From Pyrinomonadales bacterium (lineage in GTDB: Bacteria > Acidobacteriota > Blastocatellia > Pyrinomonadales > Pyrinomonadaceae), in the NCBI GenBank assembly GCA_038232235.1, contig JBBSIE010000002.1, positions 24,572 through 88,571 on the forward strand: DNA of 64,000 nucleotides. Direction: 5' to 3'. Shown in pieces: positions 27,528 to 32,681 of this stretch. Made by a program: the position numbers and the translations under genes. The notes beneath the pieces are model-generated. The model ran no database searches. It saw only the letters and a list, made by a program, of their open reading frames with translations, and was not told the origin of the DNA. Numbering within the stretch: position 1 is the first letter of the stretch; each line of letters opens with the position of its first letter.

Positions 27528-28874
27528 TTACGATTCTTCCTCTTCTTCAGTTCCGTCGCGTTTGATACCGAATTTTTCTAATCTGTATTGCAAAGTTCGG
27601 AAAGTCAAACCGAGCATTTTCGCTGATTTCGTGATGTTATTGTCGGTGCGTTCCATCGCCTGCATTATCAAACTGCGCTCGACATCTTCAAAATTTACGC
27701 CTTCGGGCGGCAGTTTGAAAAGTTCGTCGGCTGAAATGGGTTTTGATTCCTGTGTCATTTCCGGCGGCAAATCTTCAATCGTAATCGTGTCGTTTTCACA
27801 TAACAGCGTGGCGCGTTCGATTGCCGATTCTAGTTGGCGGACATTGCCCGGATAACTGTAATTTTCCAACAGACGCTTGGCTTCGGTGTTGATTTTTATG
27901 TCGCGTTTCGTGTCGCGTGTGTGTTTTTTGAGAAAATATTCCATCAAAACCGGAATATCCGAACGACGCTCACGAAGCGGCGGGATTTCGATGCTCAAAA
28001 CATTCAGGCGATAATATAAATCTTCGCGGAAACGTCCTTCCTGCGACATCTTTAACAAATCGCGGTTGGTCGCAGCGACGACGCGCACGTCAACATTTAA
28101 TTCCTTCGTGCCGCCGACGCGACGGATTTGTTTTTCCTGTAAAGCGCGGAGAATTTTCGCCTGCAAAGCGATGTCGAGTTCGCCGATTTCATCCAAAAAA
28201 AGCGTTCCGCGGTCGGCGACTTCAAAAAGACCTTTCTTTTCGCCGACCGCGCCGGTGAAACTCCCTTTTTCGTGTCCGAAAAGTTCGCTTTCAAGCAGAT
28301 TTTCGTTAATCGCCGCACAGTTGACGGCTTGAAAAACTTCATCTGTTCGCAGTGAATTATTGTGAATCGCCCGCGCAATCAATTCCTTTCCCGTTCCCGA
28401 TTCGCCGCGAATCAGCACCGTCGAACTGGATTTGGCGACCTTCAAAATCAGCTTTTTCACCTTGTCCATTTCCGGCGAATCGGAAATAATCTCCGCGTCG
28501 AGCGTCGTCAATTTATTCAAAGCGCGTGAAATCGTATCGAGCAGTTTTTCCGCATCGTATGGTTTTTGCAGATAATCAAACGCACCCAAACGCAAAGCGT
28601 CAACCGCCGAATCAACTGTTCCGTGCGCCGTTAAAAGCAGGACAATAATAGATTTATCAAAATCGGTTAATTCCTTCAACAAATCCAAACCGCTCATTCC
28701 CGTCATTTTAAAATCGGTCAAAACGAGATCAAAATGCCGGTCGGCGACAAATTTCATCGCCGCTTCGCCCGAACTCGCCGTCGTTACGTCATAACCTTCG
28801 CCCGACAAAATCATCTCCAAAATCTCGCGCTGAGATTTCTCGTCGTCCACTACTAATATGCTTTTCCTTGCCAT
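27528..28874 (-). CDS. Sigma-54-dependent response regulator (NtrC family)
   Basis: REC domain (ILVVDDE..DLVLTDFKMTGMSG), AAA+ (GESGTGKE, GAFTGA-like GSFTGA, ESELFGHEKG) and a C-terminal Fis-type HTH. Confidence 0.93.
   Translation of the reverse strand: MARKSILVVDDEKSQREILEMILSGEGYDVTTASSGEAAMKFVADRHFDLVLTDFKMTGMSGLDLLKELTDFDKSIIVLLLTAHGTVDSAVDALRLGAFDYLQKPYDAEKLLDTISRALNKLTTLDAEIISDSPEMDKVKKLILKVAKSSSTVLIRGESGTGKELIARAIHNNSLRTDEVFQAVNCAAINENLLESELFGHEKGSFTGAVGEKKGLFEVADRGTLFLDEIGELDIALQAKILRALQEKQIRRVGGTKELNVDVRVVAATNRDLLKMSQEGRFREDLYYRLNVLSIEIPPLRERRSDIPVLMEYFLKKHTRDTKRDIKINTEAKRLLENYSYPGNVRQLESAIERATLLCENDTITIEDLPPEMTQESKPISADELFKLPPEGVNFEDVERSLIMQAMERTDNNITKSAKMLGLTFRTLQYRLEKFGIKRDGTEEEEES
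28781..28874. repeat. Direct repeat copy A (5' end of the response-regulator gene)
   Basis: Aligns with 30985-31078 at a fixed offset of 2204 nt. The 68-nt core (28792-28859) has a single mismatch; both flanks are more divergent. Confidence 0.9.
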
Positions 28875-29055
28875 AAATTTTTCTTATAAATTTTTCTTTG
28901 CTTTTACAGTCAAATAAGAGTATAAACCAAATTATAAATAAATTCCGTGAAAATTCGTAAGTCCTCGAAAGTTTCCGCTTCTCAAGCTTGAGGCATTCAC
29001 AAAATCTTTTTATTTATCTTGAGAATCAAATCTAAACTTATTGGAGGTGAGTTAA

Positions 29056-30064
29056 ATGAGGAAAAAAAAACAACTTAGCGTTTTATACGCTTCTAATCGC
29101 AGGGCTTTTCAGCCTATTTACAATTAACATTTCGGCGCAAAACAAAGTTTTACCAAAAACTGACACTACAATTAAACCGTGTTCAGGTGAAAAGTTTGTA
29201 ATGCCCGCTTCAATAGCTCTCGGAAATGAAATCTTTTTCGATTATCTTAAAGTCGCAACTTTGACGAAAGATAAAAGAGGAGAAGTTTTTGAGAAATTTT
29301 CAAATGAACAAAAAGCCAATTTTATCAAAGTTAATTTAGCTTTACAGTTCATCAAGCATCCAGATATGACAAATGATCAAAAAGAGTTTGTTATGGATGC
29401 AATTTCAAAAGTTTCTACTGATTTATATGACAAATCTGATCCCGAAAAAGTAAGCCGTAGCGAACAAAGCGGTTTAGAGATAGAAAGTAGGGCTTTAGGG
29501 CTGTTTACGCAGAAGGATTTAGGCGATTTTGTTGAGCCTTTAATGACAAACAAAAATGAAGAGGTTGCACTCTTGCAAAAGTATGAAGATTTACTCAAGA
29601 ACGGGATGAAAGCAAGAAAGAAACTTGTTAAAGAAATGCCTGTAAATGACAGAGTAAATATCTGGAAGACTCAACTCGTCTACCATTTGATAACGGCAGA
29701 TTTATCACAGCCACAGAGAGAATTAATTCTGGGATTTCTGACGACGTTATCGCCCGACACTTTTATAAATTCTGCAAAGCAAACTAAAGAAGAATCGGCA
29801 AAAGCCACTGAAATACTTGACAAGAAAATTCGGTCGGTTTTTTCAAAGGAAGAGGAATTTGCAATTTTTGAAGCACTCGGTATTCAGAAAGTTGTAACCG
29901 ATCCTCCAAGAGAAATGAATAATCTACCATCACCATGGACATTTTGTGATTGCCGTTGGTATTGCGGCAGTACTGTAGGTACATGTGGTGGTGGTAGTTG
30001 CGATGTAGAGCCTCACGGCTGCGGTCCGTTCGGAGGATCGTATTGTACTAGCAAGTGCGGATGA
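29056..30064 (+). CDS. Secreted Cys-rich protein with fulvocin-C-like C-terminal module; start and signal peptide out of frame across an A9 tract
   Basis: GGAGGT RBS plus ATG at 29056, then A9 (29062-29070). The +1 frame encodes KKNNLAFYTLLIAGLFSLFTINISA|QNK.. and continues into ORF 29201..30064. The C-terminus is WTFCDCRWYCGSTVGTCGGGSCDVEPHGCGPFGGSYCTSKCG (8 Cys). Confidence 0.55.
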
Positions 30065-30125
30065 TAAAATCAATTTTCCTTGGTAACCGAGTAGGACATT
30101 CTAGCCTACTCGGTTACCTTTCCAT

Positions 30126-30983
30126 ATGAACTTCGGATCAGTTCTTACAGCTTATCTTACTTTACATATAGTTCTGATAATTATCGGACAGGTATCGCCG
30201 AACCGTAATTTTACTTTTATTTCTGGGATTCTTTTATTTTTTTGCTTTACAATTTATTACATTGGGCAATTCAATGAGAATGATGCGACTTGGGAAATAT
30301 TGTTCGTGCTTATTATGCTTCGCTTGCTGCTTTTAGGCGGTTATGATTTATACCAAGCAATTACTGAACTAAGTAATTTACCTGATTTAATACTCAACTT
30401 ACTCAGTATTATTTCGGGCTTTTTATATCTTCGCTTAGAAAACTCATTGAGATTACTGCCTTTTCTGATTAGCCTTATTTTCGCGTCGTTGTTTATATTT
30501 TTTAAAGGTTGGGATTATTTAGCTCATTATTATAATTTCGGCACGTTTACAGGTAAAACAAACGCTTATGGATTATCGCAAAAAGTTGAAGGAACTGACC
30601 AACAAAATACTAAAATAACTAATCAACTATTCGAGAATAAAATAGTTTTACTTGATTTTTGGATAAAAACTTGCGGATTGTGTTTCAAAAAATTTCCGCA
30701 AGTCCAAGCTGCTTACGACAAATACAAAAACGATCCATCCGTTGCAATTTATACAATTAATAAATCTGTTAAAGAAAACAAACCGAATCAAGTATTTGAA
30801 ATAATGAAAGAAGAAGGCTTTTCATTTCCCGTTGTGATTCCGACGGATGAAGAATTGCCCGAAAAGTTTGGAGTAAAAGGCTATCCGACAACTTTTGTCA
30901 TCAATCAAACCGGACAAATTGTTTATAAAGGCAACATCGAAGGCGCAGTTAAAATGGTTGACGAGTTGAAGAAAAATGATTAA
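30126..30983 (+). CDS. Polytopic membrane protein with C-terminal TlpA-like thioredoxin domain (CGLC)
   Basis: About 5 hydrophobic helices, then LLDFWIKTCGLCFKKFPQVQ..GFSFPVV..FGVKGYPTTFVINQTGQIVYKG. Confidence 0.75.
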   Translation: MNFGSVLTAYLTLHIVLIIIGQVSPNRNFTFISGILLFFCFTIYYIGQFNENDATWEILFVLIMLRLLLLGGYDLYQAITELSNLPDLILNLLSIISGFLYLRLENSLRLLPFLISLIFASLFIFFKGWDYLAHYYNFGTFTGKTNAYGLSQKVEGTDQQNTKITNQLFENKIVLLDFWIKTCGLCFKKFPQVQAAYDKYKNDPSVAIYTINKSVKENKPNQVFEIMKEEGFSFPVVIPTDEELPEKFGVKGYPTTFVINQTGQIVYKGNIEGAVKMVDELKKND

Positions 30984-31078
30984 GTTGTTATATCGTAACC
31001 TTCGCCCGACAAAATCATCTCCAAAATCTCGCGCTGAGATTTCTCATCGTCCACTACTAATATTGATTTTCGTGCCAT
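30980..31078 (-). pseudogene. 32-codon remnant of a response-regulator 5' end (direct repeat copy B)
   Basis: Translates to MARKSILVVDDEKSQREILEMILSGEGYDITT*, against MARKSILVVDDEKSQREILEMILSGEGYDVTT.. in the full gene at 28874. Confidence 0.85.
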
Positions 31079-31106
31079 ATTCTTATTTCGCCACAGAAAA
31101 AGATTA

Positions 31107-31180
31107 GCCACGAACAAACACGAACAAACACGAATAGAATTTAGTTAAATTTTCGTGAAATTTCGTGTTTGTTCGCGGCT
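31107..31180. repeat. Decamer-repeat hairpin (cgaacaaaca x2)
   Basis: gccacgaacaaacacgaa (31107-31124) pairs with ttcgtgtttgttcgcggc (31162-31179), 17 of 18. It lies immediately 3' of the kinase stop. Confidence 0.85.
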
Positions 31181-32681
31181 AAATTTCTTTTGCTTGCGGC
31201 AACTTCACCGTAAACAATGTTCCTTCATTCAAATTAGACGCGACTTCAATTGAGCCGTTGTGATCTTCGACGATTTTTTGCACAATCGCCAAACCCAAAC
31301 CCGTTCCGGTTTCTTTAGTGGAAAAATACGGCTCGAATATTTTCGACAAATGCTCCTCCGAAATTCCCACGCCTTTGTCGGCGACTTCGATTTTAACAAA
31401 ATTTTCGTCCGGCGAGATTGTCATATTGATATTTCCGCCGTTTTTTTCCATCGCCTGCATCGCGTTGGTCAGCAAATTATTAAATACCGAGCGCAAAACT
31501 GTCGCGTCGCCGAGAATTTGCGGGACGTTTTCGCGCTCAACGAGATTGATTTTTATATTCAATTCTTCGGCTTGCGGTTCGATGATGCGGCGCGAATCTT
31601 TGATGACTTCTCTGATGTCGAGCGGCTGTAAATCCAGTTTTGTCGGGCGCGAATAGCCGAGAAAATCAGTAACCTGCTGATTTATTCTGCCGACTTCGGT
31701 TTTTAATTGCGCGGTTAATTTTTCAAAGGTCGCGTGTTTTTCCGCGTCTTCAGGCGCAAATTTTCGGCGCAGATGGTCGAGCGTTAAGTTAATGTAATTT
31801 AACGGGTTGCGGATTTCGTGCGCGATTGCTGAAGCGAGTCTGCCAACGACCGCGCTTTTTTCCGTTTCCTGTAATTTAGCTTCAAGTTGGCGCGTTTTTT
31901 CCAGTTCAGCGGTCATTTCATTAAATTGATTGGTCAGTTTGCCGATTTCGTCGCTCCGTTTTGCGCCTTCGACGCGAACTCTTAAATCACCGGCGGCAAC
32001 GCGCTGCGCCGCATCGGAAAGATTGGCAATCGGGCGCGTAAAACGCCACACCAAAAAAATTGTGATAATTGTTGAAAGAAGTAATACTAAAAGTGTATAA
32101 ATAAGTGGCTTAGCAGCCTTAGCAGTAGCAGCTTTTTTGTCGGACTCAAGGATAATCATCACATACCAGCGTCCTTTTGAGGTTTGAACCGGAATTGCGT
32201 GGGCTTCGCCGTCGGCTTCGTTATTCAAGTCAGGATTCGCGTTCGGGAAATTTTTGATGTCTGCGCCGAGTTTTTTTTCGTCTTCGACAAGCGGCGGCAA
32301 ATCGGTCAATTCGCTTAACTTATGATATTTTGATGCGCCGTTTTCAGTTGTCGGCAAATAATCCGGTGAATTCAGAATGTCCCAAATTTGCCATTCGTTA
32401 TCAATAATTATGACATCTTTGATGCGCTGTGCGGTTTTTTCGTCATAAAACGGCTGTTTCCCGCCGTCCACCAAATCTTTCAAATATTCTCCCGAAGAAA
32501 CACCGCTAACGCCGAGAACCGTTCCCGCCACCAACGCCTGTTCCTGTATCGAGCGCAGTTCATTGTTTTCCCGCTGCGTTTTGAGATTAAGATAATACTG
32601 CACGCCGAGCGTCGTGACCAGGAGAAACGCTAAAATTATTAAAAGTCTGCCGCGAAATGTGTTGAAGAAATTCTCTCTCAT
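31179..32681 (-). CDS. Sensor histidine kinase (periplasmic loop, HAMP, HisKA, HATPase_c)
   Basis: Two TM segments, HAMP (RPIANLSDAAQRVAAGDLRVRV), H-box SAIAHEIRNPLN, and N/G boxes (NLLTNAMQAM, DKGVGI, GTGLGLAIV). Confidence 0.92.
   Translation of the reverse strand: MRENFFNTFRGRLLIILAFLLVTTLGVQYYLNLKTQRENNELRSIQEQALVAGTVLGVSGVSSGEYLKDLVDGGKQPFYDEKTAQRIKDVIIIDNEWQIWDILNSPDYLPTTENGASKYHKLSELTDLPPLVEDEKKLGADIKNFPNANPDLNNEADGEAHAIPVQTSKGRWYVMIILESDKKAATAKAAKPLIYTLLVLLLSTIITIFLVWRFTRPIANLSDAAQRVAAGDLRVRVEGAKRSDEIGKLTNQFNEMTAELEKTRQLEAKLQETEKSAVVGRLASAIAHEIRNPLNYINLTLDHLRRKFAPEDAEKHATFEKLTAQLKTEVGRINQQVTDFLGYSRPTKLDLQPLDIREVIKDSRRIIEPQAEELNIKINLVERENVPQILGDATVLRSVFNNLLTNAMQAMEKNGGNINMTISPDENFVKIEVADKGVGISEEHLSKIFEPYFSTKETGTGLGLAIVQKIVEDHNGSIEVASNLNEGTLFTVKLPQAKEI

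Follow-up and report, generated by a model that had tools for sequence, protein, structure and literature searches.

A length-variable poly(A) run, probably a slipped-strand switch, near the start of the gene for a fulvocin C-related bacteriocin precursor in soil Pyrinomonadaceae

A fulvocin C-related bacteriocin precursor gene is interrupted by a run of nine adenines (A9) just after its start codon in a 64,000-nucleotide (nt) stretch of DNA from a Pyrinomonadales bacterium (GenBank assembly GCA_038232235.1, contig JBBSIE010000002.1, positions 24,572 to 88,571 of the forward strand; the whole stretch is referred to as the window, and positions are numbered from its first letter). The frameshift is real, it has recurred in the gene family, always toward expansion of the run, and the gene is otherwise intact. 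We consider it probable, judging from sequence comparisons, that the run is a hypermutable, insertion-biased slipped-strand switch that leaves this strain OFF or low, with leaky rescue likely. Homopolymer switches are textbook knowledge for host-adapted pathogens; to our knowledge, few have been documented in soil bacteria of free-living habit or in genes for bacteriocins. By the names of their sources, the family members compared here were placed in Pyrinomonadaceae, Acidobacteriota.

Reading frames and gene product

The original prediction, made from the letters of the window, had described a GGAGGT ribosome-binding site, an ATG, an AGG triplet (29059-29061), and the A9 run, all of which were present on re-reading (Table 1). 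Translation in the ATG frame yielded MRKKKQLSVLYASNRRAFQPIYN and ended after 23 codons, as had been predicted; neither the length nor the sequence of this dead-end frame was conserved in shifted relatives. The +1 frame is closed on its upstream side by a TGA (29057-29059) that overlaps the ATG, reads GKKNNLAFYTLLIAGLFSLFTINISA followed by QNKV, and has no stop until 30062-30064. This signal peptide frame, open to the end of the gene and with no ATG, GTG, or TTG 5' of 29201, was likewise reproduced from the prediction. The internal Met codon at 29201 was rejected as the real start, being replaced by Leu or Ile in several relatives; a product started there would have no signal peptide and therefore could not be exported. 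The leader of the +1 frame (M-x-KKNNLA) is also that of full-length homologues, which start M-x-K-K-N-N-L-A, and because the A run encodes Lys-Lys-Asn in those homologues, removal of one A would bring the window's gene into frame.

The +1-frame product matched the NCBIfam family NF033852, "bacteriocin fulvocin C-related protein" (86.9 bits, cutoff 35; E = 2.4e-24); no Pfam match was found for the precursor. The architecture is that of a Sec-type signal peptide, a helical pro-domain, and a tail with eight Cys residues, and all eight Cys columns of the tail are invariant in the family alignment. The pro-domain was modeled by AlphaFold as all-helical (residues 50-270; predicted local distance difference test [pLDDT], 85-94), and a fold search of this model against the PDB gave no match below E = 1. 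Likeness to NF033852 thus lies in a hidden Markov model score above the cutoff, the 8-Cys tail, and the signal peptide, and the difference lies in the long helical pro-domain, which here is without a structural relative in the PDB. What the original prediction had called a toxin-like protein can be refined to a fulvocin C-related bacteriocin precursor, its antibacterial role being predicted from the family match; a literature search for "fulvocin" found only passing mentions or unrelated senses.

TABLE 1 Features at and around the bacteriocin precursor gene, in window coordinates
Feature	Position	Strand	Basis or remark
Sigma-54-dependent response regulator, divergent from the bacteriocin gene	27528..28874	-	Same neighbor in L028 and L029
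Shine-Dalgarno sequence GGAGGT	29043..29048	+	Sequence read; 7 nt 5' of the start codon
ATG start codon of the precursor gene	29056..29058	+	Sequence read
ATG-frame dead end, 23 codons, in the A9 allele	29056..29127	+	TAA at 29125-29127
Whole open frame of the precursor, 334 codons plus stop; fulvocin C-related bacteriocin protein	29060..30064	+	NF033852 match
Part coding for the signal peptide in the +1 frame, KKNNLAFYTLLIAGLFSLFTINISA, with predicted cleavage before QNK	29060..29137	+	
A9 homopolymer, presumed slippage-prone switch	29062..29070	+	One base over in-frame AAA AAA AA(C), Lys-Lys-Asn
Small hairpin 1, AGCGT-N5-ACGCT, 6 nt 3' of the run	29077..29091	+	Modest support
Small hairpin 2, GGGCT-N4-AGCCT	29102..29115	+	Modest support
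C-terminal 8-Cys domain (CDCRWYCG...CTSKCG), presumed mature bacteriocin part	29945..30061	+	Inside the NF033852 match
Perfect 14-bp hairpin between the bacteriocin and thioredoxin genes, GGTAACCGAGTAGG / CCTACTCGGTTACC	30082..30118	+	Inverted-repeat search
Membrane-anchored TlpA/ResA-like thiol-disulfide oxidoreductase, conserved partner	30126..30983	+	Pfam AhpC-TSA, Redoxin, Thioredoxin_8
HAMP histidine kinase, 3' of the cassette	31179..32681	-	Same neighbor in L027-L030

Runs of this length are rare in the surrounding DNA. The A9 is the sole A/T run of at least 9 nt in the 64-kb window, against 49.9 ± 11 such runs in dinucleotide-preserving shuffles of the window (about 50-fold depletion), and only three further ones were found in about 200 kb comprising the window and 30 family loci. 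The gap between some 50 runs expected and one observed implies that the genome (43% G+C) purges runs of such length, a signature tied by Baranov et al. to avoidance of transcriptional slippage (PMC1088944). Nine other A/T runs of 8 nt occur in the window, and none is lengthened; a control A8 run in the kinase gene (32271-32278) lies in a protein context that was found in no relative.

Run length and frame across relatives

Homologues numbered 140, of which 120 were listed, and in about 24 to 33 of the 120 listed, as in the window's protein, the annotated start is at or close to the internal Met. The 5' DNA was read in 33 distinct alleles of the family, the window's included. Tract length in relatives, a comparison that the original prediction had proposed as a check, proved to be expanded in 15 of the 33 (14 with +1 and one with +2), in frame in 17, ambiguous in one, and contracted in none. 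In L002, L003, L020, L021, L022, L026, L027, L028, L030, and L111, an ATG or GTG is followed by AAC and A9, against the A8 of in-frame relatives that share this context; in the window, L006, L008, and L019, one extra A follows ATG-AG(G) or ATG-AC; and L029 carries the +2 allele, AAC-A10. L111 was found by a search restricted to runs of at least A8, and without it the tally is 14 expansions and no contractions. The in-frame alleles mostly have A8, with shorter runs where Arg, Tyr, or Asp stands for a Lys; lengths at the homologous site are 8 (in frame) and 9 or 10 (shifted). The earlier statement that A8 or A11 would restore the precursor was right, and A8 is present in most in-frame relatives with the leader.

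The ambiguous allele, L039 (AAC-G-A8, with a second shift about 60 nt further on), comes from a complete-chromosome Pyrinomonadaceae metagenome-assembled genome and has either a decayed leader or long-read homopolymer errors. A9 stands in frame in a side branch (L097, ATG TT plus A9; L126, ATG AG plus A9). The side branch (L097, L126, and L059) is without the CSGEKFVMP segment and has the same leader and Shine-Dalgarno region; the 5' region of L126 is nearly identical to the window's.

Five of 14 loci fetched regardless of truncation were shifted. Among truncated database proteins with DNA read, 11 of 14 showed run expansion; of the other three, L023 had a nonsense codon, L025 a different frameshift, and L024 a replaced 5' end. 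Shifted alleles make up 20 to 35% of the sample. Because the frameshift makes automatic annotation start at an internal Met without a signal peptide, roughly one in four family members is wrongly annotated as an N-terminally truncated protein that lacks a signal peptide, a systematic annotation artifact.

The expansions arose many times. A protein tree of 89 family members with 12 verified shifted rows needed at least 11 state changes for those 12 rows, and its well-supported branches alone forced 11; labels shuffled on the same tree gave a mean of 11.5 changes, no different from the observed value. A tree of the 5' DNA, built with the run masked and holding 13 shifted rows, needed 9 changes, at least 4 of them forced by strong branches. 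One ancient programmed frameshift was rejected by both trees, and recombinational spread of a single A9-bearing 5' segment was unsupported, since the shifted alleles form no cluster on the 5' DNA tree. In two sister pairs, both members are shifted though well diverged, namely, L020/L022 (synonymous divergence [dS], 0.47; omega, 0.25) and L027/L030.

Apart from the run, shifted genes have decayed little. All relatives with upstream DNA, shifted or in frame, have a GGAGG-like box at the same distance from the start (the L030 contig begins only 4 nt 5' of the ATG), an ATG or GTG stands at the same place in 24 of 24 aligned relatives, and the signal peptide is intact in the open reading frame (ORF) of all aligned shifted alleles. 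No second lesion was found over about 1 kb in 14 of the 15 shifted alleles. The exception is L006, with a second A8-to-A9 expansion inside the gene (L006 6555-6563, TRKKIAKE region), which reads as the same insertion bias at work in a copy that is evidently decaying. Pairwise ratios of nonsynonymous to synonymous divergence (dN/dS) were 0.12 to 0.29 between shifted alleles and 0.24 between in-frame alleles. The run is never interrupted by AAG, though AAG makes up 23% of Lys codons elsewhere in the gene.

The proposed switch and its alternatives

As in phase-variable genes, a mononucleotide run lies in the 5' coding part (A9, codons 3 to 5), differences in its length toggle the frame of an otherwise intact ORF, and changes of state have been repeated and independent. 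We therefore keep the slipped-strand switch as the probable explanation. In it, the run would be a hypermutable poly(A) tract at codons 3 to 5 of the gene for a Sec-exported, fulvocin C-type bacteriocin precursor. The ON form would read AAA AAA AAC (Lys-Lys-Asn) and give the signal peptide, the helical pro-domain, and the 8-Cys tail; the precursor presumably needs export for disulfide formation, perhaps aided by the adjoining thioredoxin-like protein. Slipped-strand mispairing during replication would repeatedly add one A, rarely two, and the added A would part the start codon from the signal peptide, leaving ribosomes from the ATG to stop after 23 codons. The strain of the window would carry the +1 (OFF or low) allele as its consensus. 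Leaky rescue would come from mRNA with A8 or A11 or from a +1 ribosomal slip; since both RNA polymerase and tRNA-Lys are prone to slip on a run of at least nine A, a minor fraction of in-frame product is likely.

Published precedents fit such a tract. In Campylobacter, 8-nt homopolymers mutate toward insertion at 11:1 to 24:1, a turn to deletions being confined to longer runs (PMC3401435). Gene 5' ends are enriched in poly(A) tracts, which have been proposed as switches (PMC2831843). The threshold for transcriptional slippage is usually nine A/T, and the A9 of Thermus thermophilus dnaX gives A8, A10, and A11 mRNAs (PMC1088944). An interrupted tssM gene is rescued by poly(A) slippage (PMC4256274), and nonprogrammed frameshift suppression in Escherichia coli was measured at 1 to 10% (PMC10861913). 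That shifted alleles reach 20 to 35% with almost no further decay argues that they either revert, which would be phase variation on a population scale, or stay partly functional, and the nine-A threshold, the tssM rescue, and the suppression measured in E. coli make partial function plausible. Reversibility, the switching rate, leaky rescue, and the adaptive value (a costly bacteriocin made in part of the population) are what we infer from this pattern.

Several points weigh against the switch. All 16 sequencing runs found were available as assembler contigs and so give consensus run lengths only. Both runs that include the window's strain in full have an A9 consensus, and the L027 contig is identical in four samples, from which it follows that any switching is too slow to blur the consensus. 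Contigs of run X3, which is possibly RNA, do not cover 28972-29139, and runs X4 to X7 have nothing at the site. The case for reversion from A9 to A8 is confined to the scatter on the trees and the lack of decay, and A8 could arise simply because the KKN motif is written in the AAA-rich codons used at the 5' end. Some copies are really decaying (L006 and L039), and L028, a "2x" long-read-style contig with a fragmented neighboring gene, is possibly in error.

The strongest alternative is programmed recoding, which we think unlikely. By this account, A9/A10 would not be an OFF allele; selection would maintain it as a stable state of expression, with polymerase slippage (A8 or A11 mRNA) or a +1 slip on AAA codons yielding a set, low full-length fraction; the two small hairpins downstream might assist, and output would be dosed or stochastic while the DNA stayed the same. 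Its fuller form, held with equally little confidence, is that A9/A10 is a selected leaky state in which the polymerase, or a hairpin-held ribosome, slips in a small fixed fraction and gives a low dose or a few producing cells. In this form, lineages would move between a "full" (A8) and a "trickle" (A9) state by single-base slippage, a two-layer dosage control by DNA and RNA in free-living soil Acidobacteria.

Programmed recoding would account for expansions that reach at least nine A and for the want of the shorter, less slippery A7, and it draws on the intactness of shifted alleles under purifying selection, on the diverged sister pairs that are both shifted, and on the precedents of the nine-A threshold, the A8 transcripts of dnaX, the tssM rescue, and E. 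coli suppression. The asymmetry, however, is accounted for by insertion-biased mutation alone (PMC3401435), and the second lesion of L006 is likewise A8 to A9. As in transcriptional slippage of the dnaX or mxiE type, a run of about nine or more A/T does stand at the frame junction here, but an out-of-frame layout conserved among orthologues was not found, 17 of the 33 alleles being in frame and the shifted state scattered like random labels; programmed recoding is disfavored because of this lack of conservation. Reported slippage on A runs, moreover, mostly adds bases, and A9 needs -1 or +2. A programmed +1 frameshift of the prfB type fares no better, the site having neither the slow or stop codon nor the Shine-Dalgarno stimulator: the shift site, AAA AAA AAA CAA, is without a stop or an obviously rare codon, and instead of a prfB-like Shine-Dalgarno 3 nt upstream there is only the initiation box, 13 nt 5' of the run.

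The hairpins bear on both sides of this question. Together they are 92% paired in 24 alleles, with a few compensatory changes (L004, GUGU/ACAC; L003 and L027, GUGC/GCAC). Hairpin 1 is 89% paired in 24 sequences, with both-sided changes in 2 of 5 pairs, and hairpin 2 is 93 to 96% paired, its stem being formed by other letters in L003 and L027. In most pairs of alleles compared, dS in the first 45 codons was below the gene-wide value, often about half of it, and a ribosome decoding the run would meet hairpin 1 at the mRNA entry channel. Against this, in-frame alleles carry both hairpins too, the stems are short (a 5-bp stem is weak), and the minimum free energy fold of 29030-29120 was no better than shuffles (z = -0.9). 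We offer the hairpins, modestly supported by the alignment, as a lead and not as a claimed frameshift stimulator.

Plain recurrent gene loss seems more doubtful still. Here A8 would be a mutational hot spot, the +1 alleles young pseudogenes with no switching or rescue, and the bacteriocin dispensable in many soils. Bacteriocin genes are commonly lost, other single lesions do occur in the family (the nonsense codon of L023; frameshifts in L025, L016, and L059; the replaced 5' end of L024), and L006 and L039 carry two lesions each. A dead-end state at 20 to 35% of alleles, however, should bring many decayed copies, and all but one of the 15 run-shifted alleles are free of a second lesion, dN/dS of shifted lineages is not raised, and every shifted allele with upstream DNA retains an intact Shine-Dalgarno sequence, start codon, and signal peptide. 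This lack of decay disfavors plain loss. The phase-switch or slippage-site options of the original prediction are supported by the comparative data (run lengths of 8 to 10, at least 9 to 11 changes, intact ORFs, and purifying selection).

The third option of that prediction, a sequencing or assembly error over a true A8, is very unlikely for the window, because the +1 run recurs in 14 other alleles from different groups and several assemblers and the other 8-nt runs are in frame. Homopolymers are error-prone, and L028 and L039 are possibly long-read assemblies with other broken genes, L028 being the sole suspect among the shifted contigs (L039 was classed as ambiguous). An identical A9, however, was found in Logan assembler contigs of two soil-metagenome runs from different studies (depths, 25 and 12), one of them possibly the window's own source; the same +1 appears in SPAdes- and MEGAHIT-style contigs (by contig names), in JGI and Logan assemblies, and in many samples; and A8 is correctly assembled at the same site in many relatives.

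Gene neighborhood

The oxidoreductase gene 3' of the bacteriocin gene is also found in L021 and L025-L030, and the order common to L027-L030 is DUF4126, regulator / bacteriocin, thioredoxin / kinase / PBP. Because the bacteriocin-thioredoxin pair lies between kinase and regulator in L027-L030 too, the arrangement is old and not a recent insertion in this strain. The perfect hairpin between the two genes of the pair is likely to be an attenuator or an mRNA-stabilizing element.

A 96-nt direct repeat (90% identity) joins 30984-31079 to 28780-28875, the former being a copy of the first 32 codons of the response regulator that lies between the thioredoxin gene and the kinase. Between this regulator fragment and the end of the kinase gene sit inverted repeats (31094-31192) with 41-nt arms, 78% complementarity, and a perfect 14-nt core, CGAACAAACACGAA / TTCGTGTTTGTTCG. 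In run X2, the Logan contig that covers the cassette corresponds to 28812-31022 and ends exactly at the duplicated regulator 5' ends; its depth was 12.3, versus 23 to 33 in the flanking regulator contigs, probably because the flanks are shared by co-occurring strains.

Upstream of the gene, two conserved boxes, ..CAGGCTTT.. and ..CTTT(A/G)TTTACC.., lie 35 to 75 nt 5' of the start codon in most alleles (about 28985-29025 in the window) and may be a putative promoter or regulator-binding site. They do not fit the sigma-54 consensus. A sigma-54 promoter was sought by eye in 28875-29055, given the adjoining sigma-54 activator, and was rejected: the window has no GG-N10-GC there, and a match in L002 was not conserved. 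A sigma-70 scan found nothing 5' of the gene, and Rfam gave no known RNA family across the window.

Comparison with known systems

The family amounts to a natural experiment in uncultured Pyrinomonadaceae, with about a third of alleles expanded, many independent events, and a gene that is preserved in other respects. If reversible or leaky, the switch would provide a simple genetic means by which a costly antimicrobial could be produced heterogeneously in soil communities.

The closest likeness is to homopolymer phase variation, as in the poly-G tracts of Campylobacter jejuni (PMC3401435) and the poly(A) of Listeria inlA (PMC2831843), which share with the present gene a 5' run, an exported product, one-base frame toggling, insertion bias at 8 nt, intact OFF alleles, and recurrent changes across lineages. 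The present case differs in that the poly(A) is only 8 to 10 nt long, the organism is a free-living soil acidobacterium, the product is a bacteriocin precursor instead of a surface antigen, and the OFF alleles are the consensus in several samples and are known from assembled consensus sequences.

Systems of transcriptional slippage (T. thermophilus dnaX, Shigella mxiE, and insertion sequence [IS] elements, PMC1088944; the A11 of Citrobacter rodentium tssM, PMC4256274) also have a sense-strand run of at least nine A at which nontemplated addition or omission of A residues in the transcript would bring the start codon into frame with the long ORF, and this genome strongly avoids runs of that kind elsewhere. 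Orthologues in those systems all have the out-of-frame layout, whereas here most alleles are in frame with A8 and the shift is sporadic. Rescue by polymerase infidelity in Buchnera and Blochmannia, as far as it is described in the works that cite it (PMC2831843 and PMC3017870), likewise involves a poly(A) frameshift in an otherwise conserved gene, tolerated since slippage yields some in-frame mRNA; long runs are common in those AT-rich endosymbionts, whereas the genome here, at its higher G+C content, purges them. The type of mechanism is thus already known, and what is notable is the host, a free-living soil acidobacterium, the bacteriocin precursor gene in which the run lies, and the breadth of the comparative evidence.

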